In this document: positions 740-48,975 of the stretch, piece by piece
How the letters are laid out: every line of letters starts with the position of its first letter
Numbering within the stretch: position 1 is the stretch's first letter
DNA from: Carcharhinus amblyrhynchos
Lineage: Eukaryota
Direction: 5' to 3'
Assembly: GCA_965287045.1 (NCBI GenBank)
Contig: OZ336874.1
Span: 44,206,001-44,270,000 of the forward strand
Length of the DNA: 64,000 bases
Translations under genes and position numbers: made by a program
Notes under the pieces: generated by a model
Databases searched by the model: none
Told to the model about the DNA's origin: nothing
The model's input: only the letters and a program-made list of their open reading frames with translations

Positions 740-881
740 CTGATAGCTGAATTAACTTGTGATAAATTATTAAATCTCGTGGTCCATTCAGATTAGAGAC
801 CAAAGTTAGCACATGTTGACCAGAGAACTTGTTGGCTTCGTGAATGGCTTCATTCTCCTCATCAATCCAGAAGGCACTATC
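740..881 (-). CDS. VLDLR: Cassette 3, YWTD propeller exon 5
   Basis: [21 protein letters not shown]; 142 nt; donor GCAAGC (GC-AG intron). Confidence 0.88.
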
Positions 882-3800
882 CTGGAACGGAAAGAAAAAG
901 TCTTTAGTTTGTGCTCCACGTTGTGCCAATTTAAAAGAACAATAGATGCAGCCTTTGCAAATTTAGATCAAAATTATTCATTCAGATCTTCAAAAGTAAT
1001 TGAATGCAAATGGTCAGCCTCCAACTATCTAACCCCAACAGAATGGCCAAGGTGCATACACTTGCTAATAAATGCATCCAAGTCAGAATATTGAGAGAGA
1101 GTTAGGAACTACAGGTGGCAATAACTGTATTCATGCCAGTAAAATCTTCCAGAAAGTTTCAGACGTTCTGAATCAGGGTGTTAAGCAATGGCAGCCTTGT
1201 GTACATTCAGGAAAAGGGACTGTCTCAGTAATTTTTCATGTTCTGGAAGAGCAGTGTTTGAAACTGCTCTTATTTTTAGATCAGAATACATGCAACACTG
1301 GTATATTTGGCAGGAGCACTTTTCTGGGCATACGATTCAACACAATAGGGATTCTGAAATGTGATATCAAAACAGTACAGTGCGTCTGGCTATAAAAACC
1401 CTAATTTCAACACTTCCATCTCACCTGAAATATTGAGACAGCAAGTGGACGAGTAAGGAATTCTTGTGACTGCAGCACTGTTCTTCTATCCCGCCCATTT
1501 AGATCTACGCTGGATAACGTGTGCAACTTAGAGTCAACCCAATAGAGATGGCTTTTCACCAGATCTGGAGGCAAAGAAAGCATGGTCAGATTTCAGAAGG
1601 CAAAAAGCAGGTTTCAACAAATTATAAGTGTCATTAACTAACCGAGAGCAATGCCACTTGGCCATTGAATCTCATTGGCAACAAGGATTTGTCGATTCAC
1701 ACCATTCATTCCAGATTTTTCTATCTTTGCTGGTTCACCACAGTCTGACCAGTAAACAAACCTAATTAAAAAACAAAGGGAAGTCAAATGAATGGACTGC
1801 ACAGTATAAATTAAACCATTATTGTTGCATATATTTAGGAAAATAGCTGGCCATCTAAATTTTGCAAAGCAATACCTCAAATTGACACTTGTGTTAGAAA
1901 GATCAGTTGAGCTTGCAAATCACATGCAGCGAGATAAGCATTAACCTATATTCAATTAGATCCATGGCTATTGAATCATTTTAGCATGATCATCATTTGA
2001 GACAGTGTATACAGCCTTCTACTGAAGTCAACATTCCCTCTAATTACAGCATGTACTTCCTATTTCCACGTGTTCATTTTCAATTCTACAATCACTTGAT
2101 TTTCAGCATGCATGATGGCTGAAGGGCAATTTGTACTCAGTTTGTTGGGATAAACTCAGACCCCAAATTAAAGTTTCAGAACTTAAACAAAAAAACTACT
2201 AAAATTACAGAAGTTAGAACTACTGTACCCAGATAGTGGATCAACTTCAATGGCACCTGGCTCCTTTAAGTCTGTGTCAAACAAGATAGACCTTTTGGCT
2301 CCATCAAATGTTGCAATGGATATAGTTTTAGTACCACGATCAGTCCAGTAGAGATGCTTGTAAACCCAATCGACAGCAATTCCTGCAGGGATTTCTACAT
2401 CTTTGACCACTATGGAATGGCCAGTTCTGTCTTCCCACTTATTCAGAGACATGCTAAAACAGGGTGAACAGTCAGGTTAGCTCGCACATTTCACTTTAAC
2501 ACAGTTCACTTCTCCAAAAGAAAATTAACAGCCTTAATTCAATATACGAAAATTAAACAGTTAGTGGTATTAGATTCAATTTGCAGTGCCAAACAAAAAG
2601 CAAATAAGTTGTCACAAAATGTCTAGTGTCCTGGATTAGAAGTTAAGCTGAAGTTTTACTCATCTAAATTTAAAACTTAAATTCTACATAAATAGCATGC
2701 AGGTTTTAGCATCAAGCTAGGATTTATGCACAATACTTCATTACCTGAAAATTGCCTGCTGGCTCAAGTCAGCCCAGAAGATTCTCTGTTCTGCAATATC
2801 TGCATCCAGTGCTACAGCATTTCTCAGCTGTACAGCTACCTGGGTGTACTCACGATGATGTAGTCCTAGCTTGCGGATGTCATGGCGATTTGCGAAGATC
2901 AAATAAGGCTCTTTTCCTATGTATATTAATAACTTTAAGAACCAGCTTGAAGAGCCAAAATGCAATTCAAAGACATTGACATTTAGAAGTAGTAAGTGCC
3001 AATAACTTGTACATAGTTGCAATAAATTTTCAACTACACACCAGAAATGCTATTCCCACTGTTTGAACTATACAGCTATATTGTTGAAGTGTGGCTGATT
3101 CCAAAAGGATCAAAAAAGGTAACATTCAACAAAATATGATATTCTTGAAAATTGGCTATGGGGATGGAAGCTTTAAATGCAAATTTAAGAAAGCTTATCA
3201 TTTAATTTGCTAAATCTTCAGTTTACTTACCAACTGCTTTGCATGTGCCAGTCACTGGTTCCATGTGATATCCTTGGTGACATTCACACTTGTAGCTCCC
3301 TTCTAAATTGATACAAATTTGACTACAGGTTTCAGGAGTTTGACATTCATCAATGTCTGGGGAAAAAAAATAAAATTTTGTATCATTCAAGGTGACCATT
3401 TTCCATTAGCCTGTTTTATGATTCTACTTACCTACACAGGCCTTTGTGGTGGACAGTTGAAAACCTGAGGGACATTCACATTTGTAACCGATAACAAGAT
3501 CGGTGCAGGTGTGAGAGCAGCCTCCATTGTTCACTAAACATTCGTTCACACCTACAAAGACAGTAAAATCCAGATGTCAGACCACCACTTTTCTAGAGTG
3601 TCTCCAGTACCAGCAGAATCATACTCCACAGCATCTTCCAAACTGTATCTGAATCAATTTGCTAATATCTTCAAACTGGAGGACTATACAAAACTGGATA
3701 CAAGTGCAAATTTTAAATAGGCATTATTAATAATACAATGTGCAGCTGTAATGCAAGGCAAGGCAAGATATTTACAACAGGAGTTTGCAATGATCAATGT

Positions 3801-6800
3801 GGTTAAGAATTGTTGTAATTCAATACTAAGAGTTTGAATAATACTCAATACTTGAGCAATTAATATTCTATCACAGCTAGAATTGAGACTGATGTCAACC
3901 ACAAAATTGTTCTGCCATCCTGCATGCCTGAAGCTCTGAAACAGAATTCAAGCAAATGCCCAAAAGTTAATCCAGGAGCAGAAGGATATTCTGAGCCATG
4001 GAAATTGAACAGTCTAAGATGAATGGTCAAAATTGAAAGCTGCCTAGAAGAATTAGCAAGCTGGAGTTTGAGAGATGTATCATGGCATTTAATTTACATT
4101 ATATATGGGCAGCACAGCAGCCAGCATTGCTATTTCACAGCGCCAGGGACCTGAGTTCAATTTGTAGCTTGGGTTACTGTATGTGGAGTTTGCACATTGT
4201 CAGCGTGGGGGTGTACTAGTATCTCCCGCCCATTCTGAAAGACGTACTTGTTAAGTGCATTGACCTGAACAGGCACTGGACTTTGCAGTGAAGATTTTGT
4301 GAAATTCCCCTAGACACCAATGTTAATTTAAGCCTTACATGTAACTAAAATAACCTTTAACAAGCCACAACTATCTAGCAGAAGTGATATAAAATGGCTA
4401 AATAGGGAAGAATGCAATTAGGTCTGTGGTCAATGAATAAATTCAAAAAGGATAAACACTCAAAACTCGTGGATTTAACATACAAATTGAGGTGGCCACA
4501 TAGCTTCTCGATCCTCATGAGGAAAAAAGCCTCCCTCAAATACTAGAGAGCCAATGGACCCAAAAAAGATTGGATGTGAAAATCATATGGGAGACAACAG
4601 GACTGAAAGTCAATAAATCCCCTGGACTTGATCTACATTCCAAAATGCCAAAAAAAGTTGGCTACATTAGTGCTCTAGAATAATTTAGAGATTGGAAGGC
4701 AGCAAATGTAATCCCACTATAAAAAGGTGGGGTAAAATACAGAAAGATAATCTGACTTGGGGAAATGCCAAAATCTATTAAAGGATATATTAAAAATAGA
4801 TACAACAACAAGACACTTGATTAGTCAAAAGGGAAAGATTCAATTAACTGGGTCAGAATGCAACTAGCAGAACAGATGAGAGAAGTGGACATTTGCAAAT
4901 ATGGATTTTGAGGCACTTTGGCACAGGGGCCACACAGGAAATTAGCAAATAAACATTGGGGGGCGGGGGAAAGAGGGGAAAGTAGTGGCAGGTAGATAAT
5001 GTACTGGCATGGATGAGGACATTTAAAAACAAAAGTGGAAATAAGCCACAAAAGAGGTTGACACTGACTAGTGGAATGCTGCAATCATTACTTGGGGCCA
5101 ACTATTCACAAAAAAAAAATCAAATTTATGTGGGAAGTGCCAGTTTAAGCTTCAAAATGAAATTAGATCTTTTACACCATTAGAACTTGGGGAGGGCCAT
5201 CTGTTTTGTGGGTACAGAGATCCCATGGCACTATTCCAGAGCAAAATCCTACTGTCAGGACTGATACTTATCCCCCAGGATTTTGATCATTGTCACGTCA
5301 CAGCTAAGTTATACAAAGCTCTTTAACAGCAACATTTCTACATCACAGTGATTGCACATTTGACAGTTAAAGAACTTGCAAGATTTTGAATTCAAAAGGG
5401 AAGGAACATGGTCTACATCACAAGACAAAATTTTAATGAGTTAGCAGCATCAGATTCATTAAATATGAAGCCAATCATGCCTATAGTTTAAACTTACGGC
5501 ATCCTTTAGGGGGTTCGTCACTCTTATCCATGCAGTCTGGATGGTGATTACACACTAGAGACACATTGATGCATTCCCCACTTTGACATCTGAAATCATC
5601 AAGTCCTGTACATTCTAATTGTAGAAGAGAACAAAGTAAATACTCTGAAATGACCCAAAACATTTGAAGTTATTTTGGCAAATTACAAACCTACCATTTT
5701 TGCAGACAGCTTCATCGCTGCCATTAGCACAGTCCCAAATTCCATTACATATTTTATTACCAGGGATACAGGCACCATCACCACATTTGAAATAACCTGG
5801 ATTACATTTGCGAGGAGCTGAAATCAAAGATGGCCACCAAAAGTTTAATTCATAGCACTGGAATATTTAAACTTGTTATAAATATACTTGCAATGTTGAA
5901 GCTTCACTTGAAATTGCATTGCTGTTCCAAAATATTCAACTTGGCATTGACAATATCACATTTAAAAACAATAAGCATGTGACAAGCTTAGTGGACACAA
6001 GCAGTTCTGGATTGTCCTCAATCGTGACACATACAGAACTTTTAACAGGGGGCAACATAGTGGCAGTGGTTAACACTGCTGCCTCAGCATCAGGGACCAC
6101 GGTTTGCTTCCTGGCTTAGGTCATTGGAGTTTGCACATTCTTCCCATGTCTGAAAGATGTGCAGCTTAGGTGCATTGGTCATGCTAAATTCTCCTGGAGT
6201 GTATCCAAACAGGCACCAGACTGTGGCGACTTGGGGATTTTCACAGTAACTTCATTGCAGTGTTAATGTAAGCCTATTTATCAGGAACAAATTTTAAGCA
6301 GCAGTGAAGTATTGGGTGCCTTTTAAACCTGTTCTGATGACAAAGGATCCTAAAAATGTAGAATATTCATTTGAAACATCCCTAGTGTAAATTAGAGGGC
6401 TCATCACAACTGAAATTTATATAAGAGGTGCATAGCATAAAAACAAATTACTTACGACAATTAACTTCATCACTCCCATCTTTACAGTCTACATCACCAT
6501 CACAGCGCCATTTACTGTGAATGCATTCACCAGAATCACATGGAACATCACCAGGTGCACAAGTCACAGGAGGAAGACTGATGTGTCCACAGCGGTCTGG
6601 AGATTCATCAGACTGATCAGCACAATCTGCATTGCTGTCGCACACCCAATCCAAGGGAATGCACTGAGAATTATTGCACTGGAACTCATGTGGGTGACAA
6701 ATAGATGGCACACAGTCCCTTTCATCACTTCCATCACTGCAGTCATCTTCCCCATTGCAGAGAAATGCTCTGGAAACACAATTGCCACTGGAGCAGGTAA

Positions 6801-9800
6801 ACTCCCTGGGACTACAAGTAAGGTTGCCTGAAAAATATTTTATTCATAGTGTAGTTTAATGTTTATCACTCATCCCATAATGCATCCAAAAATTCTCCAT
6901 GAATTCAAAAGCAAAATATCAGAATGTCAGCAGGTCTGCGCTTCTCTCCAGAGAGAATGTTTCAGTTGTGACATTTCACCAGTTCTGACTGGAACTGTTT
7001 CTTCAGAAGCTGCCAGACCAGGAGGATTCTCCAGTGGTAGAAGAACACCATCAACCAAAGATGGATTTAGCCCAAGTAAAAAAAATTGCTCCTATTTCAG
7101 ATAATGAATTATTTCAACCAACAGGCGCTGCTTTTCCAAGAGGATCTGACAGCAGTAGATATTAGATTAGTTTGACGTGTTTACCTGCAAAGGTCTGAGC
7201 ATTTGACAAAAGTGACTAGCATCAAAATTTACCAACTGTAACTTCTAAGATTAGTATTTTCATTGCCAGTACCGAGCAATAGCCTGGGCTACAATTAAAT
7301 TGAGTTCTTCAAGCCTACCTTCAATTAAAATTCAAACCATATCAACTGACATTGGCCATGCTAAATTCTCCCTCAGTGGTGCCTGTTCAGATAGAGTGTA
7401 GTGGCTAGGCAATTTTCACAGCAACTTCATTGCATTCTCTTTCCCATCTTCCCTGGACTATTTGACTGCTTGCAAACCATGTTTAAATCTTGCCATTATT
7501 AACCTACCACAGTTCTCTTCATCACTGCCACTTGCACAGTCCTTTTCTCCATCACATTTCCAATTTGCAGGAATACACTGAAGAGATCCAGGGCCACAGC
7601 TGATTTCATTCATATGACAGGTTCTGGTGTCTGAAATAGAAGGTTTTAAAATAAACAGCTATTCCAGAATCTCATTTCTCAAACAGATTAAGAACTACAG
7701 TAAAAAGGATTTGCTCCAAGGTAGTCAAAGACATCACATTTGAGTATGCAGAAGCATGTATAGACCCAGACTTGTGCTAGAGTGCAACATATCCATCCAT
7801 TTATACCACAACTAACTTTGGTCATGCAACATTAAAACTTTAGGCCAGCACCATGGCTGTGGATTTGCTAATAGTTAAAAATAGGCAGTGAATCAGTGAG
7901 CATTTTATATGCTGTCCAGTTTCAGCTCTTGATTCCCCATTACCACCTTTTTTCACCTGATCTAGTGAGGTAACTTACAAACAAAATAAATTTTAATGTT
8001 TGCATCCATCTTTCTGCCCATTAAATTACAAGTGTGTGAACAATTCAACTGTTTGACCAAGAAGAGTTAGGAGTCCAATAGGTAAAATTCAGTGCAGCCA
8101 ACAGATTTTTCATTGTACTGCAGATGGCACTTTAATAACTTGATCTGCTAATCTCTTATGAAAGTCCCAGTCAAATGCAATGTATAGAAAGGAAACTAGT
8201 TGTGGAAGCTGTACTAGTATTTTTTGCTTAAGAAAGAGATTGACTGTTGCAGTTGAACTGCCAACACAAGATATTTAGAACAGGCATCTGGGGCTTCATC
8301 AGATCCATCTTTGCAGTCAGCATCTCCATCACACTGCCACTTACTAGGCATTGTCCATCATGACAAGTCAGATTCTTGACATGGAGCATTAATTGTCAGG
8401 GAAAATAAGACTACAGTCTTTGACTACTGCTAATTCAAGACACACGGCCAAGTTGAACATTTAGTATGCAAGAACCCTCACCCCTCCATTTAGCCATTAT
8501 GCTGAATGGCAGCCAGCGGAGTCTAAGTGAAGAGTCAGTTATTTCCTTAGTGTGCCCTGGAAAAATTCATTCAAAAAAAAAAGGGTCATGAACATGTCCA
8601 GTCATGATGTCTTTAAGTACCAGGCAAATTGGTGAAACTGCTACAGATTGTGATGACAAGGATGGGTAAATACTGATGAACTAAATTGCTCCCAGTGGGT
8701 TAGCTGTTAAGATTGCAGCAATTTGGGCTGGATTACATAAAGCCTGAACTTCAAATGATTTGTCACATGATCTTATTGTCTAAAGAGCTCTTGCTGACTT
8801 ATACTGGCTTTGACCAATACAAAGCACTCCACCCACTTCCAGGTTGGCACAATGTACAACTCACTCCAATTCTGTAACTGTGGGATTCCAGGTCCATCTA
8901 TTTTCACTTTTCTTAACATAGTGCTCCCAGAATACTTTATTGGGCATCCTTTTTCACATTTCCTCTTCATACTATCCCCTCTCTCAAAAAAAAATCCTTT
9001 GGGGAAAACTTGTAGACAAGGGGAAGCAGTACACAAAAGAGCATTTATTATTTGCTTAATATGCATTTTTACTCTAAATATGACTTGCATATCAGATCTA
9101 TTTGAAGCCTCCTATATGTCCAACTATTCAGATAGACAGACTTCATCACCCCACTTGAACTTAGCTATTGGATCAACTACCAGCAGCATCCAAAAGCAAA
9201 TACCACAAAAAAAACACTACTGGAACTAATGCACAAAAGGAGGCACAATGCAAGTATAATGACATTCCAACTATGGCTTTATGCAGATTAGTGATTGATA
9301 GTGTGTAGTCAGATTGCTGCATGCAATCTCAAGGCCTTGGGTAATTTTTCTATCCTTCATGCAAAGGTGATTGCCTAGTCTATGATTTTACAAAATAGAT
9401 CAAAATCTTCAATCACAGTCTAAACATGTTACATTCTCACTTATAGCAAAGTCTCACCTCCCCTCCCCCCCAACCCCTGAACAAACCTCAAAACCAATAT
9501 TTACCAAATTCGCAGTGTTCATTCTTCATCTTGATTCCAGATGGACACACGCAAGTATATTTTGGCAGCTGATTAATCTGTGGGCCAGGGAGACACAGGT
9601 ATTCACAGCCTCCGTTTTTCAACTTCTCATTGCACCAGTTTATGCCTGTTGAAACCAAATAAATTTGTCAGTACTGGAAACAAATCAAGGCCAGTGGCCC
9701 AAGATCAAATGAAAACCCAAACTTACTATTTGAAACATTCAAAATTTCACAGTAGTCATTGTGCATTGAGATCATGGACTTGAGCACAAACAAAATATCC

Positions 9801-12800
9801 AGTGACTAATCCAAATGTGGACAAAATGATTGCTGTGGAAGGCAAAGATATTCATACTATATCTATAGATAGAACTATTACTGTTCTATAACAAAGTGGA
9901 ATTTACTGACCTCCAACTATTGGAAATCCACATGCTAGCAGTTAGGCACATCTACCCTACAGAGTAATGCAAAGCCAATAACATTAAAAGTAGATGTTTG
10001 ATTTCCTACCTGATGGCTGCATTAAAGTGTGGTAAATAATGATATCTTGAGGTTGATGAAGATTGGAAACCAAAGCCGTCACATCTGCTCCTGTATACTT
10101 GTTGGCTGCATAAATGGTTTTGCTTACTTCATCAGACCAGAATACATGATCCTGAAACAATGGGAACACAATTTATCAGGAAATAACTTGGCATTCTTTG
10201 CAAGATGTCTTGTGCCTACTACAATAAAAAGTCCTGAAGACAAAGTGGCTCATTAGTTGAGATAACAAAAACAAATTTGAGTTACACATCTCTGGTATTC
10301 TCTCATATCTCTTGCTTATATGTAGGCCATAAATCCCATCTCTCCTCTCCCCACGAGGAGCCTGGCTAGCAGAGTGCTACCAATCTTTCAACCCTGTCCA
10401 TCTCTACCTGAGATGGTTCAACGTACTGAAACTTATACTTCAAAGCTACAGATACTAAATCATTCATTCTGATCCACTGTTCAGTCCTTTAGGAAAATTC
10501 TCCTATTGTCAACATTTCACCACCCATATTTTGGATAATCAGAAACACTGCGACTAAACCACTGGTCAGCCATAGTAAAAAGTACACCTTAATTGAATTG
10601 TGCCCAATTGGAGCATGGCTTTAGATAATAAAGCAAAGTGTGTGCCACTCAGCTCGCAATCAAGAATAGATCAGTCTCAGTACAAAGGTGAAAGTCAAAC
10701 TCAATTTTGGCTCCAGCCTCAATTCATAATTTTCTTTTCAATTGTAGGTGCTACAACCCTAGGACTATCAAATTTTTTTTTTTTAAAAAAAAGTGTTGAA
10801 AACAGAAGCTCCAAGCACTTGGCAAATTAACAAAAAAATTAAGCCATTGACAAAACATTACACAATTAGATTACATCATAAAGCTGTCAGTTAGACAGTC
10901 TTCTCCTCCCACATTTTGCAACAGTCTGGGTTCTCAGCCAGCAGTCAGGGTACAGGCTCCTACTGGCACCCTTAACCAGGCCACAAAAATTAGGGGCTCT
11001 TGGGAATGGACCAAAAATATAGAACATGCAGAATACCACTGGGGCATTGTCTTTTGGTTTAAGGCAGCATGGCAAGGAATTACTCTTGCTTGGGTACATA
11101 TTGAACAGCTTGCTAATTATTTTAGCCCAGGATAAAATTTTCCAAATATGACTGGGTTGTGATAACCACATGAGATTCAGACAAACGTGCTCTCAAGAAG
11201 TAATGATTCAAAATAAATCGCTGAATTGTAGATATCCTCAAAAACCCAACTGTGCACTCAAAGCAAAATATAGCTATTGTTAAATGACATTACCTCAAAT
11301 ACTGAAACAGCACAAGGATGAGCAAGGAATTCATGTGAATAAAGGACTGTTCTTCTGCCTTGTCCATTTAAGTCTACACTGGACAACATGTGCAGTTTTG
11401 AGTCAACCCAATAGAGTTGGTTCTTCACAAGATCTGTGAAAAAAATTGGAATTATTAACCAAGCTCAATAAAAAAAGAAAAAGGGAAAATTTACTTGCCC
11501 ACTTACCAAGTGCAATACCATTTGGTGACTGAATCTCTCTGGTAACCAGAAGTTGCCTATGGACACCATTCATTCCTGCTTTTTCTATCACAGCTGGTTC
11601 ACCCAGATCAGACCAGTAAATAAATCTTTGAAAAGCAATGGAGACTGGATTAGTCAAAAGGCCATCAAGAGGAATCTCAACACAAATGGATTTTAAATAC
11701 TCTAGCATAGAAGTATAAACTGAAGGTTCTATGAACCCCCCTAGAGATCAAATCAAGTGAATTTGCCAACCTAACCCAGATAGGGTTTTAACTAGAACAG
11801 ACAGACAATTCCATCATTAGAAATCTCAATTAGTAGATACAAGGATCTTGTCAGGCAAAGTGGCAGCAATTTCAGCCATAAAAAAATCTAAGACAATTCC
11901 AGCTCCATTTAATCAATGAATCATTCTCATCCAATAGTAGCTCCTACTCAAACCACATGTATTCATCTAGAACCTTCTCAGGCTTACTATTGGATTTTGC
12001 TGCATGGATCCACTAGAATCCCCTGTATCTGAATATTTAATAATTGTCTAGCACCCTGTATGGTCAATTCTGGTCACTCAAATTTAAAAAAGTTAGCTCA
12101 AACAGTGGCAGCAACTTTGTATTTGCTTAGGGGCTACTCCTAGACCCAGCCTTGGTATTTATTCTCCTCCTTCAAAGTCACCACCCACCCACACAACCTG
12201 GTCACTAGGGCTCACTGCATCACTCAAACTCCAGAAAATTAGATTATTAGAGAATTGAACACTCAGGCATCCAATGCTAGTACCAAGGCTAGTTTGGTTG
12301 GTTTCAATAACTTCCAAAGCATAACAGAAAAACACACCTTTTACTTAAGGCACATTTTGCAACTCCTACTTCAGCTGGTCTGGGTTTTGGGGAAAAAAAG
12401 CACTCCCACCAGTGAATGGTCATCCAATAATTGTTCCCCCACCCCCCACAAAGACAGCTCAAACTTCACTGATGACTGCTACACTTTTCCCCCCCTTCAT
12501 TGAAGGAACAAGGTTATTGTTCCCTCCTCTATTGTCAAGTTTTGATCAATGAGAGGTTACCTGAAGAAATAACAATAACAATTCAAAACTGGAGAGAATT
12601 ATCCAGCTGATCCAAGCACTATTGTTTTTTGCATATAAAGCACTCACACCCCTAGTTTTTCCACAAGAGATTAGCCTATTTCACACCCAATTCACTCGCC
12701 ATCCCAAGACAAACCCAGAGATTTGAACATTATAGAAGTATTTTACAAGTGCCAAGTGGCTTCAGTGGCAGGTAAAAAAATTCAGTACCCAGTTAGTGGA

Positions 12801-30800: not shown

Positions 30801-33800
30801 CAAGAGCATAAGATTCCTTGTGGAATGTCCCCTTTCTCAAAATACCCCTCTTCTCAGATGTGAAGCTATGACAGCAAACTTACAAGATCACACAATTGAG
30901 ATTGATGATTTGTTCCCAATAGTTTATAGGGATGACAATAATAAACAGGCTCTCTGCAAGACACTGAATATTCCAACTTTTGTACACCCACCCCCACCTT
31001 CCCCAAACTCATCTGGGTTCTGATGATGGCCCATGGTGTTGACCACCATACCATGTGCCAGGCTGTCATATTTTAACCACCCAGTTCTTTTCCCTGCTGG
31101 TATGACTGAATTGATGTGTACATAAAAGGGCAAGTGAAGCAAGATGCATGCTGATTGCTCCATAGATGTGTACAGTGTTCCCCTGCATCCAGTGCAGAAG
31201 TATTTAGCCATTTGGAGCTGATACATATTAAACGTAATCAAATTGTATTCTTGGTCATAGTCAGTGAACGAGTCAGCTTGCAGCCCAGAGATGGAGAGCA
31301 ACCTCATGCAGCCCAATCAACCTAGGTAGCTCATTGCTGGTCAATAGCAATAAATGCAGTTCAAACAGTGGACCTAAAACACTCCTCTCAAGTGTCAACC
31401 CAGATGGATTTTACATAGGTAATGATACTTAACCCAGCCTGTCATGTACCAAAAGCTGCAAACATCTACTTCAGCTTTGAATCAGCCAGTTTAGGGTTTA
31501 GTTATTTACCTTCAGTTCTTCAGCACACGTTATGCTGTTAAATACCTGCATATTGTTGTGTATAACAGTGTTTCACAGCAGACTTAATTGAATATTTTCA
31601 AATACTGTACTTGCCCACAGCCTTGCAACCCCCATTGATTGGATCAATGTGATATCCTTTATGACAGTCGCACCGATAACTTCCATTTAAATTGATGCAA
31701 ATTTGACTACAGGTTTCTGGATTTTGACATTCATCAATATCTGCAAAGAAAGAAATATCCTTTCAAATTCATGATCTGAGTCAATTTGGAAGAAAATTAG
31801 TGGAATTGAACTTGCCTGCACAGGATTTCTTGCCCACCAGTTCAAAGCCAGGTGGACATTCACATTCATAACCAATGGCAAGATCCCTGCAGATATGAGA
31901 ACAACCACCATTGCTCACCAGACACTCATTTATATCTGCAAAACAAAATTGGAATTTCTTTTGTATTGGAGTCTCAAAGGCTATTACAAGACAGTAACTC
32001 CACCATAAGCAGTGTAAAATTAAAACAGTATAAATCGATTAGTTTGTTTAGTGAATGCAAAGTCCTCAAGCAAACAGTTTCTTCCAGTCCTGCTGTATTG
32101 AGTTTGGATAGGCCTCTATGGAGTCTGTAGATTAGACACTGATGGTTGTGCGTAGCTTACACTCCCTTAGGAGAAAAGGCTAGCTCTAATGCCCCCTCTG
32201 TGGGGGTTCACCAAAGAGGGTCTGTGGCTGTGCCTGAATCTGAGTGGACCACACTTTCCCTGGCAAGTTGAAACAAGTTTAAGGCCAAGTACTTGGTCAC
32301 ATTCAATGATTCCCATTCACTTGTCTAGATGGAATATACATTGAAATCCTGTTTGGAGGTGGCTCTCCCCCCACCCAAATGGGTGTTCCAGTATGGATAT
32401 GCATGGTAGCATTCAGCTGGATGTGAGTCATGTGAGATGATTTTGACCAAAGGGCACAGTATTTTGCTACAAGCATGGGGTTCAAGTGCTGAGGTTTGGA
32501 GGGCAGTGATAGCAACACCCCAGAGTAGTCTCTATCATGGCTGCAGCTGTTTAGGTGTTCCTGGAAGATCAGCATCCTATCTAGAGTCACATTGAACTAT
32601 ATTGAGTTAGTGTTTTAACTTGCAGCCATTTGGATGTTGAGCACTATTGGCTTTTGCCTTGTGAAAGTGGAGGGTTTGCTTTGAATCACCATGTGTTGAA
32701 GTATTGTTCAAATTTTGACAAGTCCTCATTTAAGATCTAGTCAGAGATTGAGGCCAATATTGTTGGCATATATGAATTTGGGAGGTAGTTTCTGGAAGAT
32801 CATTGCTGTACAAGTTGAACAGGGTTGGAGCAACAGTCTTGATTTGCCTTTTCCATATACTCTATGGCTGCTAAAGTGAACTCTGAACTTTTGACTGTTC
32901 AATAGTACTGCAATGCTGTTAGCCACTCAGGGGAGAGGGGCAGTGTGCCAAATGGTGTTATAGGCTGCTGTGAAGTTCAGAAACAGCAACTGTCCAAGTT
33001 TTTGAAAGCTGTTTTCAACATACCTGTTCCCACACTGTAGTGCTAGCAAAAACCAGCTTGACTAAAGAAGGATTGAGGGATATCTGCTGAAGGAGGAGAC
33101 ATCCAAGAATTTTATAATGGAACTGACAGGCAAGATTGGACAGTTGCTAGCTACAGATATGAGTTCTTTTCCATGTTATGGCAATGGCTTTTACACCCAA
33201 AACAGTTGGAGCCAAGTCCAGAAACAACTTATTGCCAAACTACTTGACCCAACCTAAGATGTTGCTAACACTACCCAAACTTTAGCATAGTTGCAGAATA
33301 CTGCACTCATTTGGTCAAGATTACAGTTGATAGCCAGCTAAATGCTACCATTTGTTATTGTTTTGGCATTCACAGCCATCATGCAAAACCAGGTCAGCTA
33401 GACAAAATCTCAGGGCCCCCAAGTGTTTCATAACTTTTGGTATATATATCCTGCTGCCTTGTCACACTTCAAACCCTGTAGGATCTTCGTTCTTCCACAA
33501 CCTTTAAGACATTTTTTAAATTTTGCAACCTCAGAGGGGATAGCACTGATGTTTTTTGTTGATGTGTCTCCATTCACCACAGATCTCTCTTTTGGTGTTT
33601 TTGTTCAGGGGTGCTGTAGTATGGCAAATAGGTGGCCAGAGGCATGGTTGGGAGTAATTGGGATAATTTTTGGCTTTTGGGTTGCTTTAAGGTAATGGAT
33701 CAGGCTCCAGCACTCCCTGCTGCAGTGTATGATCTACTGATATTAGAAACTTTGACACATCTACATGTACAAACCAGCAGCAGGGTTAGATCTTTCAGCC

Positions 33801-36800
33801 CCTCAAGCCTGCTCTGCCATTTGATAAGATCATGGATGATTGGATCATAGCCTCAACACTACCCACTTTGACAACTGTCAATCATAATTTAAACAGTCTT
33901 AAAAAGTATGACCCTACCGCTACAGAATCAAAGATGAATGATCCTCAGAAACAAAAACTCCCATCTCGACATGGGAAGTTGTCTTCTAGAGAAAAGTACC
34001 TGCCCAGCCAAGTCTTATTCATCATTCTTTTAAACTTCCATTAGGTAAAAACCAAACATGAAAACCTTCATTCCAGGAATCAGTTGGTGAACTTTCTGAA
34101 CTGCTCAATGCAATTATACCAGAAGCCAAATTTGTAGCAGGACTATCCTAATCCAATAGTCCATTCCCCTTTCAATAAAGGCCAGCATCAATTTGCCATC
34201 CTAGTCACTTGCATGCGATTCACACATCCCTGTTCAATTCTGCATTTCTATTCCAAGTGAAGCTCACGTTTGCCCACATTTAACTAAGATCATTTAATAA
34301 AGAACATTGTAATTAGATTAAACCAAATATTGATGCACAAGGATAATCATGACATTACTTGTTAGTGCACTGGAGGGGGGAAAATTTGTGAAGGTGATTA
34401 AGAACAATGTTTATGAATTTAAATCAAAAGACACATTTAATACTAGCAAAATTCAAACTTTTCACAATTAAAAAAGTCTGATAATAGCCTAAAAACACCT
34501 GCCCCTGTCTGCCAGCCTTATTTCAGTTTGCAGAAATAGGAGAAGAAATAAGTGGAACTATAAAGCTACATACAACATTCTTTTAGGGGCTCATCACTCC
34601 AGTCTTTGCAGTCTTGTCGCCGATCACACACTTGACTCATATTTATGCATTCTCCAGTTTGGCATTGGAAATCAGAAGGCCCTGTGCACGCCAGAGCTGG
34701 TAGAAGGAAAAAAGTTGAATGAGTTTTGAACCAAGGAGCTCAATAAAGTGCTCTTAAACTCTACTGTCTACTTACTCTTACAGTTGTGCTCATCACTACC
34801 ATCAGTACAATCAATAAAGCCATTGCATCTCTTGCTTTCAGGAATACATTTATCTCCACATTTGAAGTGACCAAATTTGCATATTGGAGCAGCTGCCAAA
34901 CAAAAACTCAATTTAAGAAACAGGAATCACGTAGCAAGCCAACAAATTCGGACAATATTTAACATGCTCAATTTTAAAATAATGCTCCCAAATATTTCTA
35001 ATATAAACTTCTGTCACAAACCATAATTAAAATGTACCCCTAAAAGGTTTCTCATGATTCTCCCCCACTATTTTATTAATTTATGTGACCAGTATTTATT
35101 ATATCCCTAGTTGTCCTCAAAAGATAGTGAGGACTGCCTTTTGAATCACTGCAATCTCCAATATGTAGGTACATCCATAGAGCTGTTAGGGTAGAGTTCC
35201 AGGATGTCGACCCAGTGGCAAAGACGGAAACACACTATTTCTAAGTCAGGATGGTGTGTGGCTGAGAAGGCAACTTCCAGGAGGTTGTGTTCCCAGATAT
35301 TTACTACTCTTGTCCTTTGATATGGTAGTGGTTGCAGCTTTGTCAAATGCTTCCTGAGGAGTCTTGGGGAGTTCCTGCAGTGCATTGTGTAGATGCTCAG
35401 ACAGCTGATGAATATTTGTGGAAGGGGTAGCAAAAGGGTTGCTTTGTCCTGGAATGTGTCAAGCTTTGTGTTATTGGAACTGCACCTATCCAGGCAAGAG
35501 GAGAGTATTCCACTACAATCCTGACTTGTGCTTTGTAGACATTGCAAAGGTTTTGGTGAATCAGGTGGCAAATTACTTGCTACAGGATTCCTATACTTTG
35601 ATCACTACAGTATTTACACACTAGGCTAGTTCAGTTCCTAGTCAATGATAACCTTTGTATAAGGACGTGCATGGTATTGATGTTTCTCTTTTAATCCACA
35701 GGTGCTTCGGTCTGCCTTGTTGTCCAACAAGGGGCATACGAGGGCTGCTCTTGGATGTTGAGTAGCCTAGTACTTCACGTCATTAGTGTATGCTTAAACT
35801 GGACCAGATGCTGGGCAACACGACAGCTCAGTCACTATCACTGTTTGCTGTGCAGATACATGGATTTGGGCCAGTGTCTGTGGGAGTTTGCGCATTCTCC
35901 TTGTGCTTGCGTGGGTTTTCTCCGGGTGCTCCGGTTTCCTCCCACACCCTAAAGATGTGCTCTTAGGCTGATTGGTGTAACAAATTGTCCCTAAATTAGT
36001 CTTCCCCCAATGTGGAATGCCATAAGCATAGACAAGGGTCATGGGTGGAGAGGGGACTCAATCTTAAAATGGCAGCGAGGGCTCATGGGGCCAAAGGGTC
36101 TGTTTCCTGTGTTGTGTTGTTCTTTGTAACCCTCATGTTGATAATGGGGGATTAAGCAATGGCAATGCCATTGAATGTTTCTAGCTATGTCAGGCAACAT
36201 TTCCATCCCTGCAGCACATTATCTTATGGTCAAGGAAAGAAAGTCATTACCTAACTGAAGATGTTTTTGTCAAACAGTCTGTCCCACCCACTTGTTAATC
36301 TGTCAATTGGAAATGCTGGACTGTCAAACATCACAGCAAAGAAATGCTCAAACCATTTGGGAAGAAAAATACACTTTTAGTGTTGCAATGACTTTTCTCC
36401 AGAATTAGCATCCTGGAGGTTAGAAACAAAAATTAAGATGCAGAATGGGATTAAATTAGTTCAGATGTCATGGGCTCCATTTTTCCTTAAAATAATCTCA
36501 GACAAAACAATAGTGATTCCAGGATGTCCTAAAGTATTTTATACCCATTGTTGATTGTATACAAACAGTGGCAGGACACAGGGACAGCATGTTATTCAAA
36601 TACAGTCATAGAATCTTTTATATCCACCCAAGGCATCAGAAAGATCTGATGATTATTCCATCCAAAAGACAGTATTGTGCCTTCAGTAAGGGGCTCAAAC
36701 TCAACTTCCTGACTTGTGTCCACTCAGGCACACCAGAACTACAGGTAAAGCAACTGTATTTTTAAAAAAAAGGAGGCAAATTCTGAACAAGTGGCACCAA

Positions 36801-39800
36801 ACACTATTTAGGAATGACACAAGATATCATTTGTATTTATCACTGGCTTAGTTATTCGTGGTCAATTGCATTCAAATACTAACATTTCTAGAATTCAAAA
36901 TGTCTCAGTTCAAGAGCAGTCTATTGGTTAGAGACAGTAAAGAATTTTAGCACTGCTAGGCCACCATCAATAAGGAGTGACATAAAAAACTCACCAATTA
37001 AAACATTGTAAATCCCAGACTAGAAGGAATATAACACTTACAGCATTTGTCTTCATCACTTCCATCTTTGCAGTCTTTATCTCCGTCACAGTGCCAGTTA
37101 CCGTGAATGCATTCACCAGAATTACATAAAAACTCACCAGGAGAACAGGTCACTGTAAGTGTATACCCACACTGGTGTGGAGATTCATCAGATTTATCAG
37201 CACAGTCAGCATTAGTATCACACAGCCAATTCATGGGAATGCATTCAGAACTATTGCACTGAAACTCATGAGGGCCACAGATACGTGACTTGCAGTCCTT
37301 TTCATCACTTCCGTCACCACAGTCATCTGCACCATTGCATAAAAAGTTTTTGGAAATGCATCTACCACTGGCACACGTAAACTCTAATGAATTACAAGTA
37401 ACAGTGCCTAAAAGAAAAAGAAAAATGATATCAGTTCATGTGCTTTAAACTATGGACCATACTTCAAAAGATACTCAAGGTCAAACACCTTTCAGTCCTT
37501 CTAAACTTGGCCAGTGACTGTAGTCTGGCGATTAAACAATTACTGGGCATGCAGCAGGTCTTCATATGCAAGGTCAGGATGACAGAATGACACCTGGCTT
37601 TTGAAATGGAGTCCACTATCTAGTAACAATATATACATTCCATAACAGGGGTCCCAAAAAGAAGGAGAAATGACATCTTACAATCTTGCTCTCATGCCCA
37701 AACGTCCATCCTTGGCCCATGCAATGCCCCAGTGAAAGCTGGAAGAGCAGCATATCTTCCAGTCAGGCATGTTGCCACACTTGACTTGCATGGAATTCAA
37801 CAACTTAAGATTTTGGCCTTGTTCCTCCAACTTAAACACCACCCCGCATCTCCCCCACCCCCCCCCCCCCCCAACTTTCTTTTTTTTTAGGTGTCCCATA
37901 CATGTATTGCCTCAAGTAACACCACCCCCCCCCCACCCCCCTCCCCAAAACCCCAAGGGCACCTAACCTTGGGTCCTTAAAGTTGCTACTTGCAATTTCT
38001 ACAGCTCTAAAAAAAGTGTTCTCCCTCTCTTCAGTTCTGATGTAGAGTCAGAAGGACTCAAAACATTAACATCTTCTCCAAATGGATGCTGACAGACCTG
38101 AGTATTTCCACTGTCCTCTATTCTTTTAATAGAAGTTGTGGTTGATTTTGCTCATTTGCTGCAAAGCCATACGGAACAAAGTAAATGAACAAAAATGTCT
38201 CAAAATGGAAACTAGCCACAAATCATCTCATATGTTACAACTATGAGGTCTTGGGAACCATTAAGTTAGAATGAACAAGTGGTCCTCAAGCTACATACCA
38301 CAGTTCTCCTCATCACTACCATCATCACAGTCCTGTGCTCCATCACATCTCCAAGAGACAGGAATACACTGGAAAAATCCAGAGCCACAGTGTATTTCAT
38401 TGGCTCGACAAGTGTTTGTGCCTGAAAGAGATGTACAGCCATGATTATTTGCAGCACTACTTCCATGTTGCCTTTAAGGGAGAAAAATGCAAGGCCTGTT
38501 CACTATTATATTTTTCCATCTTGTTTGGTTCTCAATTGCAAATTTTGAAATCAAGGTGACAAAGCAATTATTAAGGAATGGCATCAGACTGTTGCCTCAC
38601 CAGGGTTTAGAATCTGCTCAGATGACCAAAGATACATGTGGCATTGCTATTTGTTAATCCAAATTTATTCTTCCCTCAACCAATACCATCTTTAGCTCAG
38701 CTTTTGACAGAATGTAACAAATGCAAAGAGTGCACAGAATTCTCCACCGTCACAGTGGCAATATCCATGGATTACATAAATGGGCAAACTCTGACAAGTC
38801 GATTTTTAAAATAAGCAAATGTTTAATTTGATGCTAAAAGGATGGAAAGCACACCATTTTCCAATGATGAAATTTTAGAAATAGTGGAAGGCCTAAAGAG
38901 GCTTGGGGTTGCAGAAAGAGAAGTAATCAAAAGGCCTAATGGAATGCTAGCATTTATATCTAGGGGAATAGAATACAAGGGAAGAGAAGCCATGATTCAG
39001 GTATACAAGGCCCTGGTTAGACCACATCAGGATACAGTGAGCAACTCTGGACAGCACACCCAAGGATGAATACGACAGCCTTGGAAGGCATACTTCATGG
39101 ATATTACTACAATGATACCTAGACCCAGAGGTTAAATTGTGTAAGCTACAGCTGTAGTCTCCAAATCTAGACAGTTAAAGGGTGATTTGATTAAAGCTTT
39201 CAATAGGAACTAATAGGGTGGATAGAGAAAAGCTATTGTAGCCAGTTGGGGAATCTGATAGGTCAGGCTCTGTTTCCTTTCAGGAATGAAATTGGGAAAT
39301 ACTCCGACATGCAATGGGCAGAAGTTTAACACTCTTACCACAAACACTACCATAGTAGTTAAGGAAGGTTTTGTTTTACATCCAATAATAATGACCACAT
39401 TGTGTGACAAAGTCAGGAATCAGCCATGATCAACTGAATAGCAGAACAGGCTTATTAAGGATTAAGCTACCTCTTGTTGATCCGATCTGCCCAAAATATA
39501 CATCGGTTAAGTGTATAGTTTCTTTAAAGAGAAAAGCGAAATCTGTGCAGACTTCATCTACACCCCTTCTCTAATTATATTCGCCTGTCTGGCATCTATA
39601 AACTTAGAAAATTCTAAGTTCTGAATAAAACGATAACAACAACAACAACATTAATACATTAAACAAGTTACCCTAGATAATGCAAGCGCGAAATTTCATT
39701 CAAAGCATCCTCTGGCGATAAAACCTCTTTGCTTGCCAATAAGAGATTTATCATCAGACGCGCACTTTGTTCACTCACTAAAAATATTTGCCTTGATTAC

Positions 39801-39950
39801 GCTGTCACTTTCACTTGTTCAGTATGTCCACCCAAGTTACTTTCATTTTTTAATTTAAAAAAACACGTAGTTACATTACTCACCCGTTACAGCGGTGGGC
39901 GAATAAGAACACAATGCGAACAGTAATACAATCAATCGAAAGGGAATCAT
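740..39950 (-). CDS. VLDLR: VLDLR-like LDL-receptor-family gene with a tandemly triplicated ectodomain (37 coding exons in window; 3' end lies beyond position 1)
   Basis: Signal-peptide exon, then three LA-EGF-EGF-YWTD-EGF cassettes (the third EGF-C is outside the window). Exon lengths 120/126/172/119/140/142 and intron phases match the LDLR/VLDLR gene structure. Repeats resemble VLDLR LA2-LA8 (e.g. [24 protein letters not shown]). Neighbour is SMARCA2. It is a paralog-type VLDLR-like gene, not necessarily the canonical ortholog. Confidence 0.88.
1425..1564 (-). CDS. VLDLR: Cassette 3, YWTD propeller exon 4
   Basis: [28 protein letters not shown]; 140 nt. Confidence 0.92.
1643..1761 (-). CDS. 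VLDLR: Cassette 3, YWTD propeller exon 3
   Basis: [20 protein letters not shown]; 119 nt; GTTAGT donor. Confidence 0.9.
2229..2453 (-). CDS. VLDLR: Cassette 3, YWTD propeller exon 2
   Basis: [15 protein letters not shown]...[12 protein letters not shown]; 225 nt. Confidence 0.9.
2745..2916 (-). CDS. VLDLR: Cassette 3, YWTD propeller exon 1
   Basis: [18 protein letters not shown]...IFWADL; 172 nt. Confidence 0.92.
3231..3356 (-). CDS. VLDLR: Cassette 3, EGF-B
   Basis: [30 protein letters not shown]; 126 nt. Confidence 0.92.
3432..3551 (-). CDS. VLDLR: Cassette 3, EGF-A
   Basis: [30 protein letters not shown]; 120 nt. Confidence 0.92.
4107..4360 (+). mobile_element. tRNA-derived SINE (V-SINE/HE1-like)
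   Basis: tRNA-like head with B-box-like gagttcaatt, tgtggagtttgcacatt core, and a tail shared with other copies. Confidence 0.7.
4420..5110 (+). mobile_element. Highly decayed CR1-type LINE ORF2 fragment
   Basis: Remnants of the KSPG, WKAANV.PL and DF...F..VPH motifs. Confidence 0.5.
5498..5614 (-). CDS. VLDLR: Cassette 3, LA8-like repeat
   Basis: [38 protein letters not shown]; 117 nt. Confidence 0.88.
5695..5817 (-). CDS. VLDLR: Cassette 3, LA7-like repeat
   Basis: [36 protein letters not shown]; 123 nt. Confidence 0.9.
6048..6297 (+). mobile_element. tRNA-derived SINE (V-SINE/HE1-like)
   Basis: gtggcagtggttaacactgctgcctca head; ggagtttgcacattc core; aacttcattgcagtgttaatgtaagcc tail. 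Confidence 0.75.
6456..6827 (-). CDS. VLDLR: Cassette 3, LA4-6-like repeats
   Basis: [16 protein letters not shown]...[11 protein letters not shown]; 372 nt. Confidence 0.92.
7508..7630 (-). CDS. VLDLR: Cassette 3, LA3-like repeat
   Basis: [38 protein letters not shown]; 123 nt. Confidence 0.92.
8279..8392 (-). pseudogene. Pseudo-exon: decayed LA2-like repeat of cassette 3
   Basis: [34 protein letters not shown] is recognisable, but the acceptor position reads CAA, the donor position reads CTAAAT, and two short deletions give an in-frame TGA. Confidence 0.85.
9505..9645 (-). CDS. VLDLR: Cassette 2, EGF-C
   Basis: [23 protein letters not shown]...YTCVCPSG; 141 nt; phase-1 GTAAAT donor. Confidence 0.9.
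10010..10151 (-). CDS. VLDLR: Cassette 2, YWTD propeller exon 5
   Basis: [21 protein letters not shown]...QPSG; 142 nt. Confidence 0.92.
11294..11433 (-). CDS. VLDLR: Cassette 2, YWTD propeller exon 4
   Basis: [28 protein letters not shown]; 140 nt. Confidence 0.92.
11507..11625 (-). CDS. VLDLR: Cassette 2, YWTD propeller exon 3
   Basis: [20 protein letters not shown]; 119 nt; AAG acceptor. Confidence 0.9.
12789..13013 (-). CDS. VLDLR: Cassette 2, YWTD propeller exon 2
   Basis: [15 protein letters not shown]...[12 protein letters not shown]; 225 nt. Confidence 0.9.
13345..13516 (-). CDS. VLDLR: Cassette 2, YWTD propeller exon 1
   Basis: [18 protein letters not shown]...IFWADL; 172 nt. Confidence 0.92.
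14205..14333 (-). CDS. VLDLR: Cassette 2, EGF-B
   Basis: [26 protein letters not shown]; 129 nt. Confidence 0.9.
15017..15136 (-). CDS. VLDLR: Cassette 2, EGF-A
   Basis: [29 protein letters not shown]; 120 nt. Confidence 0.92.
16766..16882 (-). CDS. VLDLR: Cassette 2, LA8-like repeat
   Basis: [15 protein letters not shown]...[13 protein letters not shown]; 117 nt. Confidence 0.9.
16956..17081 (-). CDS. VLDLR: Cassette 2, LA7-like repeat
   Basis: [36 protein letters not shown]; 126 nt. Confidence 0.9.
17105..17400 (-). mobile_element. CR1 LINE 3'-end fragment
   Basis: Reverse complement matches the 59620-59960 CR1 3' end. Confidence 0.65.
18230..19810 (+). mobile_element. Decayed CR1 LINE (ORF2 reverse transcriptase to 3' UTR)
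   Basis: Broken [21 protein letters not shown] and SKFAD.TK motifs; CR1 3' end. Confidence 0.8.
20015..20280 (+). mobile_element. CR1 LINE 3'-end fragment
   Basis: aaaacaagagggcataggtttt...tgtatgactc tail. Confidence 0.65.
21275..21640 (-). CDS. VLDLR: Cassette 2, LA4-6-like repeats
   Basis: [15 protein letters not shown]...[11 protein letters not shown]; 366 nt. Confidence 0.92.
22048..22167 (-). CDS. VLDLR: Cassette 2, LA3-like repeat
   Basis: [37 protein letters not shown]; 120 nt. Confidence 0.9.
23016..23053 (+). pseudogene. U2 snRNA 5' fragment (about nt 1-39), head of a repeat
   Basis: gtcacttccagccttttggctaagatcaagcatagtat versus U2 ATCGCTTCTCGGCCTTTTGGCTAAGATCAAGTGTAGTAT; the rest of U2 is absent. 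Confidence 0.75.
23517..23820 (-). mobile_element. tRNA-derived SINE (V-SINE/HE1-like)
   Basis: Reverse strand reads tggcatggtagcacagtggtgagcactgctgcttcacag..gggtttgattcc..tgtggagtttgca; CR1-like 3' tail. Confidence 0.8.
24553..24678 (-). CDS. VLDLR: Cassette 2, LA2-like repeat
   Basis: [38 protein letters not shown]; cag/gtaagt; 126 nt. Confidence 0.88.
25883..26029 (-). CDS. VLDLR: Cassette 1, EGF-C
   Basis: [22 protein letters not shown]...CVCPAGF; 147 nt; phase-1 GTAAGA donor. Confidence 0.9.
26368..26657 (+). mobile_element. tRNA-derived SINE (V-SINE/HE1-like)
   Basis: ggcacagtagttagtactgct head; gttgcacattcttccc core; tail ending gggattctatga. Confidence 0.75.
26755..26896 (-). CDS. 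VLDLR: Cassette 1, YWTD propeller exon 5
   Basis: [21 protein letters not shown]...QPSG; 142 nt. Confidence 0.92.
27575..27714 (-). CDS. VLDLR: Cassette 1, YWTD propeller exon 4
   Basis: [28 protein letters not shown]...IFE; 140 nt. Confidence 0.92.
27792..27910 (-). CDS. VLDLR: Cassette 1, YWTD propeller exon 3
   Basis: [20 protein letters not shown]...WPNGITL; 119 nt; AAG acceptor. Confidence 0.9.
28391..28615 (-). CDS. VLDLR: Cassette 1, YWTD propeller exon 2
   Basis: [15 protein letters not shown]...[12 protein letters not shown]; 225 nt. Confidence 0.9.
29935..30166 (+). mobile_element. Degenerate tRNA-derived SINE
   Basis: Same head, core and tail motifs as the copy at 6048-6297. 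Confidence 0.6.
30215..30353. mobile_element. Short palindromic interspersed repeat, copy 2 (hairpin 30254-30346)
   Basis: Inverted arms of about 44 bp: tctcaacaccaggttaaagtccaacaggtttatttggtagcaaa and tttgctaccaattaaacctgttggactctaacctgatgttgaga. Confidence 0.75.
30529..30700 (-). CDS. VLDLR: Cassette 1, YWTD propeller exon 1
   Basis: [17 protein letters not shown]...IFWADL; 172 nt. Confidence 0.92.
31615..31740 (-). CDS. VLDLR: Cassette 1, EGF-B (calcium-binding type)
   Basis: [26 protein letters not shown]; 126 nt; donor GCAAGT (GC-AG intron). Confidence 0.9.
31816..31935 (-). CDS. VLDLR: Cassette 1, EGF-A
   Basis: [30 protein letters not shown]; 120 nt; donor GCAAGT (GC-AG intron). Confidence 0.9.
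32130..33420. mobile_element. Decayed non-LTR retrotransposon remnants
   Basis: Minus-strand [10 protein letters not shown] near 32945-32980 resembles the RT D.TAAYDTVW motif; heavily broken. Confidence 0.4.
34574..34696 (-). CDS. VLDLR: Cassette 1, LA8-like repeat
   Basis: [38 protein letters not shown]; cag/gtatgt; 123 nt. Confidence 0.92.
34776..34892 (-). CDS. VLDLR: Cassette 1, LA7-like repeat
   Basis: [34 protein letters not shown]; cag/gtaagt; 117 nt. Confidence 0.88.
35085..35655 (-). mobile_element. LINE 3' fragment (family also at about 49830-50310, 54480-55440, 56050-57050 and 62400-62800)
   Basis: Mutual similarity between copies; ORF 35146-35571 resembles a degraded LINE ORF2 C-terminus. 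Confidence 0.65.
35860..36125 (+). mobile_element. SINE fragment (V-SINE core)
   Basis: gggagtttgcgcattctccttgtgcttgcgtgggttttctccgggtgctccggtttcctcccacac. Confidence 0.7.
37042..37407 (-). CDS. VLDLR: Cassette 1, three LDL-A repeats (LA4-6-like)
   Basis: [16 protein letters not shown]...[11 protein letters not shown]; tag/gtaagt; 366 nt. Confidence 0.92.
38299..38421 (-). CDS. VLDLR: Cassette 1, LDL-A repeat (LA3-like)
   Basis: [38 protein letters not shown]; cag/gtatgt; 123 nt. Confidence 0.92.
38700..39480 (+). mobile_element. CR1 LINE 3' fragment in intron 1
   Basis: [30 protein letters not shown] is a CR1 ORF2 C-terminal motif. Confidence 0.8.
39884..39950 (-). CDS. VLDLR: Exon 1: start codon and signal peptide [22 protein letters not shown](G)
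   Basis: ATG at 39950, hydrophobic core, phase-1 GTGAGT donor; 67 nt; lies in a CpG-retaining region. Confidence 0.85.
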
Positions 39951-48905: not shown

Positions 48906-48975
48906 AATTTGATGGTGGAATTTGATCCTGGGTCCTCAGAGCATTATCCCGAGTCTCTGGATTACTTGTCCAACG

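Follow-up and report, generated by a model that had tools for sequence, protein, structure and literature searches.

VLDLRc3 of the shark Carcharhinus amblyrhynchos, a receptor gene in which the VLDLR ectodomain is repeated five times

Introduction

A 64,000-nucleotide stretch of the Carcharhinus amblyrhynchos genome (assembly GCA_965287045.1, contig OZ336874.1, positions 44,206,001 to 44,270,000; hereafter the window) carries a long array of exons of the LDLR family, and raises the question whether one gene can encode a receptor in which the whole VLDLR ectodomain has been repeated, how far such a gene extends, where its units come from and what they are for. An earlier note on the window had read at least three tandem ectodomain copies from the sequence and had cautioned that VLDLR duplicates of cartilaginous fishes might have been reported before. 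Both statements were borne out: the real number of copies is five, two of them beyond the left edge of the window, and the gene is the orthologue of the chondrichthyan VLDLRc3, which is already published.

According to the accessible text of Ohishi et al. 2023 (PMC10015161), cartilaginous fishes possess three tandem VLDLR paralogues, of which VLDLRc2 contains three and VLDLRc3 five ectodomain units; expression of these two is confined to the ovary in the cloudy catshark, and multivalent vitellogenin binding is put forward by the authors as a proposal only. Besides this paper, no other literature naming VLDLRc3, or linking tandem cartilaginous-fish VLDLR with vitellogenin, was found, with most subscription journals lying outside the search.

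Results

Gene model. The window (G000:C5:44206001-44270000 of a 2.92-Gb genome) was read together with its surroundings as a 464-kb sequence containing 0 N (300 kb added on the left and 100 kb on the right). In six-frame motif scans of the window, the LA, EGF and YWTD matches of the array were found exclusively on the minus strand, and an EGF-A/B probe matched eight places on C5 and two on other contigs of the whole genome. The one-cassette canonical VLDLR gene in this locus served as seed for the definition of exons, the others being located by tblastn and snapped to AG/GT boundaries. Automatic calls for the acceptors of the second propeller exons were too short and were set by hand to the upstream polypyrimidine AG; the LA counts are based on exon calls and residue pattern. 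These calls reproduced exactly what had been read before, i.e. one signal-peptide exon and altogether 37 exons of 5,809 nt between the ATG at 39950 and position 740, with compatible phases, 0 stops and 19 LA repeats, distributed as 6/7/6 over three cassettes (Table 1). All acceptors are AG, and the donors are GT except for 3 of 37, which are GC. Exon 1 is similar to the signal exons of VLDLRc2 and VLDLRc1 and to the N-terminus of the whale shark orthologue. Pfam analysis of four submitted window exons returned LA (PF00057; three stretches, E 2e-43), EGF families and LDLR class B (PF00058). The tblastn E-values of the 36 domain exons (1e-10 to 1e-67 per exon) and the VLDLR exon order occurring three times over preclude a chance array; the tandem cassettes are real, as first read.

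The gene continues for 38 kb past the left edge of the window (G000:C5:44205883 to 44168035), where the EGF-C exon of cassette 3 is followed by cassettes 4 and 5 with seven LA repeats each, a stalk, the transmembrane helix and the cytoplasmic tail. The earlier note had advised inspecting this region for EGF-C, O-glycan, transmembrane and NPxY exons or further cassettes, and all of them were found there apart from the NPxY motif, which is replaced by FxNPxF. The complete model comprises 67 exons (10,299 nt) encoding 3,432 residues with 0 internal stops, and its five cassettes carry 6/7/6/7/7, i.e. 33, LA repeats. Its 3' part consists of a 66-nt Ser/Thr-rich exon (O-glycan stalk) and two exons for the transmembrane helix and tail; the stalk exons, picked by composition and similarity, are the least certain part of the model. 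The layout of LA cluster, EGF-A/B, YWTD propeller, EGF-C, stalk and single transmembrane helix is that of the VLDLR branch. The 66 introns have 61 GT and five GC donors, and all acceptors are AG.

GC-AG introns also occur in VLDLRc2 (three) and are absent from VLDLRc1 (0). Those of VLDLRc3 have their donors at window positions 31816, 31615 and 740 and at G000:C5:44197463 and 44177896. Four of the eight GC donors follow an EGF-B exon, which suggests their inheritance via cassette duplication.

One gene or several. The four introns joining the cassettes are short (1,204, 1,874, 518 and 2,328 nt), and every one is in phase 1. A search with the signal peptides and the transmembrane/tail parts of the three locus genes revealed no additional signal or transmembrane/tail exon in these four introns, which speaks against separate genes, named beforehand as an outcome that would overturn the one-receptor reading. 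A single transcript running through all five cassettes is the presumed product. Alternatively, the locus might give rise to several shorter or secreted products, from separate genes or internal ends, the five-unit protein being a join made by gene prediction. The five GC donors among 66 introns, and fragmentary RefSeq orthologue models of Hemiscyllium (2078, 848 and 686 residues), S. torazame (1382 residues) and Heptranchias (1900 and 1065 residues), are in line with such products. However, the whole array possesses a single signal exon and a single transmembrane/tail exon, its junction introns are short and phase-compatible, and full-length models of 3,423-3,491 residues exist in five other shark species. 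Moreover, the two fragments whose C-termini were read end within a cassette, one of them in an apparent intron read-through. We therefore regard shorter products as improbable.

Locus and orthology. VLDLRc3 is the first of three genes in a row on the same strand, with five, three and one cassettes, followed by a KCNV2-like open reading frame. In other vertebrates, KCNV2 adjoins VLDLR. Global identity of VLDLRc3 is 84.0% to the catshark record BDQ29913.1, named 'VLDLR c3' (3,347 columns), 92.1% to the Mustelus model and 77.1% to the whale shark model. Of the published primers, the c3 pair aligns to cassette 5 and to the transmembrane exon (two mismatches each), and all four c2 primers match the neighbouring three-cassette gene with one or two mismatches. 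The five units, the tandem cluster with VLDLRc2 and VLDLRc1, the primer sites and the tail are shared with catshark and chondrichthyan VLDLRc3. Differences concern single repeats: the catshark record lacks LA7 of unit 1 (a 41-residue gap), which is present here, and the whale shark protein has 34 LA repeats compared to 33 here, where unit 3 has lost LA2.

Comparison with other receptors. Exon order and phases of canonical VLDLR (LR8, here VLDLRc1) match those of every cassette, stalk and transmembrane helix are common to both, and each VLDLRc3 unit is 65-71% identical to VLDLRc1 of this genome. In contrast to the single unit with eight LA repeats of canonical VLDLR, VLDLRc3 has five units, each without LA1. 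The tails differ as well, FDNPVY plus about 35 residues in VLDLRc1 and FENPVF, three residues and a stop in VLDLRc3.

LRP1 and LRP2 (megalin) are likewise large multi-cluster endocytic receptors of the LDLR family, and automatic RefSeq names of VLDLRc3 orthologues read LRP1-like or LRP2-like. The earlier description of the gene as an LRP-like receptor holds for size and multi-cluster layout, but not for module identity: best local identity to the VLDLRc3 query is 27-34% for LRP1/LRP2 compared to 58-65% for three c3 matches. By these identities the modules are not orthologous to LRP1 or LRP2, and the units nest inside VLDLR, albeit in a tree without LRP1/LRP2 rows. LRP1 and LRP2 have uneven LA clusters and long tails with multiple motifs. 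VLDLRc3, unlike them, is a regular repeat of the whole VLDLR ectodomain.

Origin and maintenance of the units. A tree of 55 segments spanning LA4 to EGF-C was calculated with IQ-TREE in quick mode (LG+G4, SH-aLRT support only), segments with fewer than 430 aligned residues being dropped. The last exon of the VLDLRc1 model is two bases off frame, which leaves the tree and the ratios of nonsynonymous to synonymous substitution (dN/dS) unaffected, since both use LA4 to EGF-C only. Every unit of VLDLRc3 clusters with its positional counterpart in Mustelus, two catsharks, whale shark and bamboo shark (support 100), Mustelus being the nearest relative among the rows used, and fragments of Heptranchias and Pristiophorus join units 1, 2, 4 and 5. 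Taken together, the units of c2 and c3 are monophyletic (98) and group with chondrichthyan VLDLRc1 (100), to the exclusion of bony-vertebrate VLDLR, the LRP8-like gene and the C26 paralogue of the same genome. The nesting of all five cassettes within chondrichthyan VLDLR (SH-aLRT 100) supports the duplication of a whole VLDLR ectodomain proposed in the earlier note, and the cassettes are not split among different LDLR-family members. The tree gives no resolved duplication order among the units, and its root is weak because the two outgroups are long branches meeting each other.

The units, mutually 62-70% identical, are conserved by position and show no homogenisation. Unit pairs have dS values of 1.0-1.5 and dN/dS of 0.13-0.24 in all 15 pairs; the units are under purifying selection. 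They evolve faster than VLDLRc1, with identities to catshark of 83-86% versus 94%. We infer that a tandem duplication of VLDLR was followed by internal duplication of a block from LA2/LA3 to EGF-C, which is feasible due to phase-1 introns at both of its ends, and that these duplications predate the split between galeomorph and squalomorph sharks.

In the rabbitfish VLDLRc3 (accessible supplement of PMC10015161), the last four units contain 6, 7, 6 and 8 LA repeats as counted by eye, LA7 being doubled in the last one. Holocephalan units may therefore not correspond one to one with shark units.

The dead LA2 exon. Cassette 3 has only six LA repeats because its LA2 exon is dead (Table 1). Both splice sites are lost, a stop codon lies between two small deletions, and skipping of the exon would keep the frame. 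In a relative's sequencing run (X1), a contig spans the exon with 0 gaps and no listed splice-site change, i.e. in the same dead state, and X2 and X4, two runs of one sample, carry a further 30-nt deletion in it; run X6 does not cover the exon. The lesion shared by X1 and X2/X4 indicates that it is not an assembly error. LA2 of unit 3 is intact in the whale shark and catshark proteins and reduced to a shortened 34-residue piece in the Mustelus model. Upstream of the first LA exon, as far as the signal exon, no remnants of LA1 or LA2 were found, the sole off-model matches at E <0.4 being those at 8280-8381.

This dead exon might be taken as a sign of an assembly artefact or a decaying duplicated pseudogene. 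The units, however, differ by 30-38% in protein with dS of about 1.0-1.4 and dN/dS <0.25, the 464 kb contain 0 N, independent runs of relatives carry the region, and orthologues exist in other sharks. These data refute an artefact or pseudogene, and we attach practically no probability to either.

Features of units and tail. Several details go beyond the accessible main text of PMC10015161, namely the tail motif, the absence of LA1, the propeller residues and the dead exon; the terms NPxY, cytoplasmic and internalization have 0 occurrences in that text. The FENPxF motif followed by three residues recurs in all nine other shark c3 records that reach the tail, VLDLRc2 of this genome has a FENPxF tail with a slightly longer end, and the curated rabbitfish c3 has one with nine residues beyond the motif. 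LA1 is absent from all five units, and units 1 and 3 also have no working LA2. The Trp-Asp-x-Asp pattern is present in LA5 and LA6 of all units and in LA3 of four. Such a Trp/acidic pattern in LA repeats serves lysine binding, and its retention suggests that generic lysine binding is intact.

Propeller residues were numbered by ungapped ranges relative to LDLR (1N7D). In six of six full-length proteins, units 1 and 4 carry Trp at the position of LDLR residue 515, whereas units 2, 3 and 5 have Leu/Val or Cys there and so lack a conserved propeller tryptophan. Position 541 is Ser in unit 2 (6/6); in the present gene cassette 2 combines Leu at 515 with Ser at 541. Positions 560 and 562 are kept in 30 of 30 units of the six proteins, and position 586 is Arg in unit 3 of this genome. 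The 515 pattern is not universal, as unit 4 of Pristiophorus has Cys there. We presume that LDLR residues 515, 541, 562 and 586 act in acid-dependent release, although no supporting text was found in the literature search.

Neighbouring features. The sequence upstream of the gene contains a 330-bp direct repeat (window 46857-47186 and 48579-48908, 96.7% identity) among LINE-like fragments. Short open reading frames within 40000-64000 resemble degenerate LINE reverse transcriptase by eye (44632-45171, 47757-48188 and 59211-59588; no Pfam match). A match to ALKBH8_N at 45297-45671 (E 5e-8) is probably repeat-derived.

Table 1. Positions of the VLDLRc3 exons in the window and of related or adjacent genes
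Feature	Position	Strand	Details
Exon 1, ATG and signal peptide	39884..39950	-	67 nt, phase-1 GT donor; only strong candidate near gene
Cassette 1, ligand-binding exons	34574..38421	-	6 LA: LA3 38421-38299, LA4-6 37407-37042, LA7 34892-34776, LA8 34696-34574
Cassette 1, EGF/propeller	25883..31935	-	EGF-A 31935-31816 (GC donor), EGF-B 31740-31615 (GC donor), five YWTD-propeller exons 30700-26755, EGF-C 26029-25883
Cassette 2, ligand-binding exons	16766..24678	-	7 LA: LA2 24678-24553, LA3 22167-22048, LA4-6 21640-21275, LA7 17081-16956, LA8 16882-16766
Cassette 2, EGF/propeller	9505..15136	-	EGF-A 15136-15017, EGF-B 14333-14205, propeller exons 13516-10010, EGF-C 9645-9505
Dead LA2 exon, cassette 3	8279..8392	-	acceptor AA, donor CT; 114 nt vs about 123 expected
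Cassette 3, ligand-binding exons	5498..7630	-	6 LA: LA3 7630-7508, LA4-6 6827-6456, LA7 5817-5695, LA8 5614-5498
Cassette 3, EGF/propeller	740..3551	-	EGF-A 3551-3432, EGF-B 3356-3231, propeller exons 2916-740 (last: GC donor)
VLDLRc2, three cassettes	G000:C5:44146188-44099104	-	43 exons, 2,164 aa, no stop, LA 8/6/7, FENPAF tail ending in transmembrane exon
Canonical VLDLRc1, one cassette	G000:C5:44019690 to about 44004520	-	8 LA, FDNPVY tail
KCNV2-like open reading frame	L030:4243-5589	-	449 aa, BTB_2 and Ion_trans domains; ~13 kb beyond VLDLRc1; KCNV2-like by first Atlas match
Divergent single-cassette LDLR-family gene	G000:C26:42329205-42292484	-	~50% identical to VLDLR units; LDLR or LRP13 candidate
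LRP8-like gene	G000:C9:58778357-58744275	-	FDNPVY tail; tree outgroup

Discussion

We consider it likely that VLDLRc3 acts as one five-unit type I membrane receptor which binds vitellogenin or different yolk lipoproteins through several sites on the surface of the oocyte and would internalise them by the clathrin route via its FxNPxF tail. In a conceivable mechanism, the five LA clusters would bind lysine-rich patches of vitellogenin or lipoprotein and thereby provide avidity, the EGF/propeller units would free the cargo at endosomal pH, and the adaptors Dab2 or ARH might read the NPxF motif and initiate clathrin endocytosis. The last step is deduced by analogy to amnionless of the CUBAM receptor, an otherwise unrelated protein, comparable in the tail only, in which NPXF also replaces NPXY; in cultured cells, according to the accessible text of PMC10295476, its NPXF engages Dab2 about as well as NPXY. 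By this analogy, the VLDLRc3 tail likely retains endocytosis.

Several observations weigh against this assignment. With the published c3 primers, only the range from cassette 5 to the transmembrane exon is covered, which is no proof that the five cassettes share one mRNA, and the fragmentary RefSeq models mentioned above point in the same direction. Only one of the two published c1 primers matches the third gene of the row, the other having no match under five mismatches. Finally, the first three repeats of a fish receptor are reported as essential for vitellogenin binding (accessible text of PMC11772764, citing Li et al. 2003), while VLDLRc3 has no unit with LA1, which by analogy may call its vitellogenin binding into question.

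The missing LA1 leads to a rival interpretation, in which the cassettes are specialised: the units would bind different vitellogenin paralogues or other lipoproteins, only some propellers would fold back for release, and the LA1-bearing VLDLRc1 and VLDLRc2 would hold the classical vitellogenin site. Such a scenario is compatible with the moderate identity between units that are each conserved by position, and with the unit-specific residues at 515 and 541 in all six full-length proteins. On the other hand, the Trp-Asp-x-Asp pattern of LA5, LA6 and mostly LA3 is retained across the units, the literature search yielded no text on a role of the propeller positions in acid release, the Cys in Pristiophorus unit 4 breaks the 515 pattern, and unit 3 tolerated the loss of LA2. 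On balance, specialised cassettes appear possible but clearly less probable than the concerted five-unit receptor. More tentatively still, one may speculate about a division-of-labour receptor, as opposed to a fivefold vitellogenin site, whose LA1-less units carry propeller surfaces that are position-specific across sharks and whose tail, shortened to a tyrosine-free FxNPxF stub, would dedicate it to uptake and escape control by tyrosine phosphorylation. Under this assumption, the loss of unit-3 LA2 in one carcharhiniform lineage could mean, again as a speculative option, that the valency is still being trimmed, possibly in connection with the reproductive mode.

As the gene is already published, the main gain of this analysis is a correct model for a locus which automated annotation has mislabelled as LRP1/LRP2-like or split. 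Concrete constructs for the binding tests left by the accessible text of PMC10015161 can be derived from the differences between the units, from the NPxF tail and from the dead exon of this lineage. VLDLRc3 represents a clean natural case of a multivalent receptor generated by whole-ectodomain duplication, and is a candidate loader of the very large eggs of sharks.

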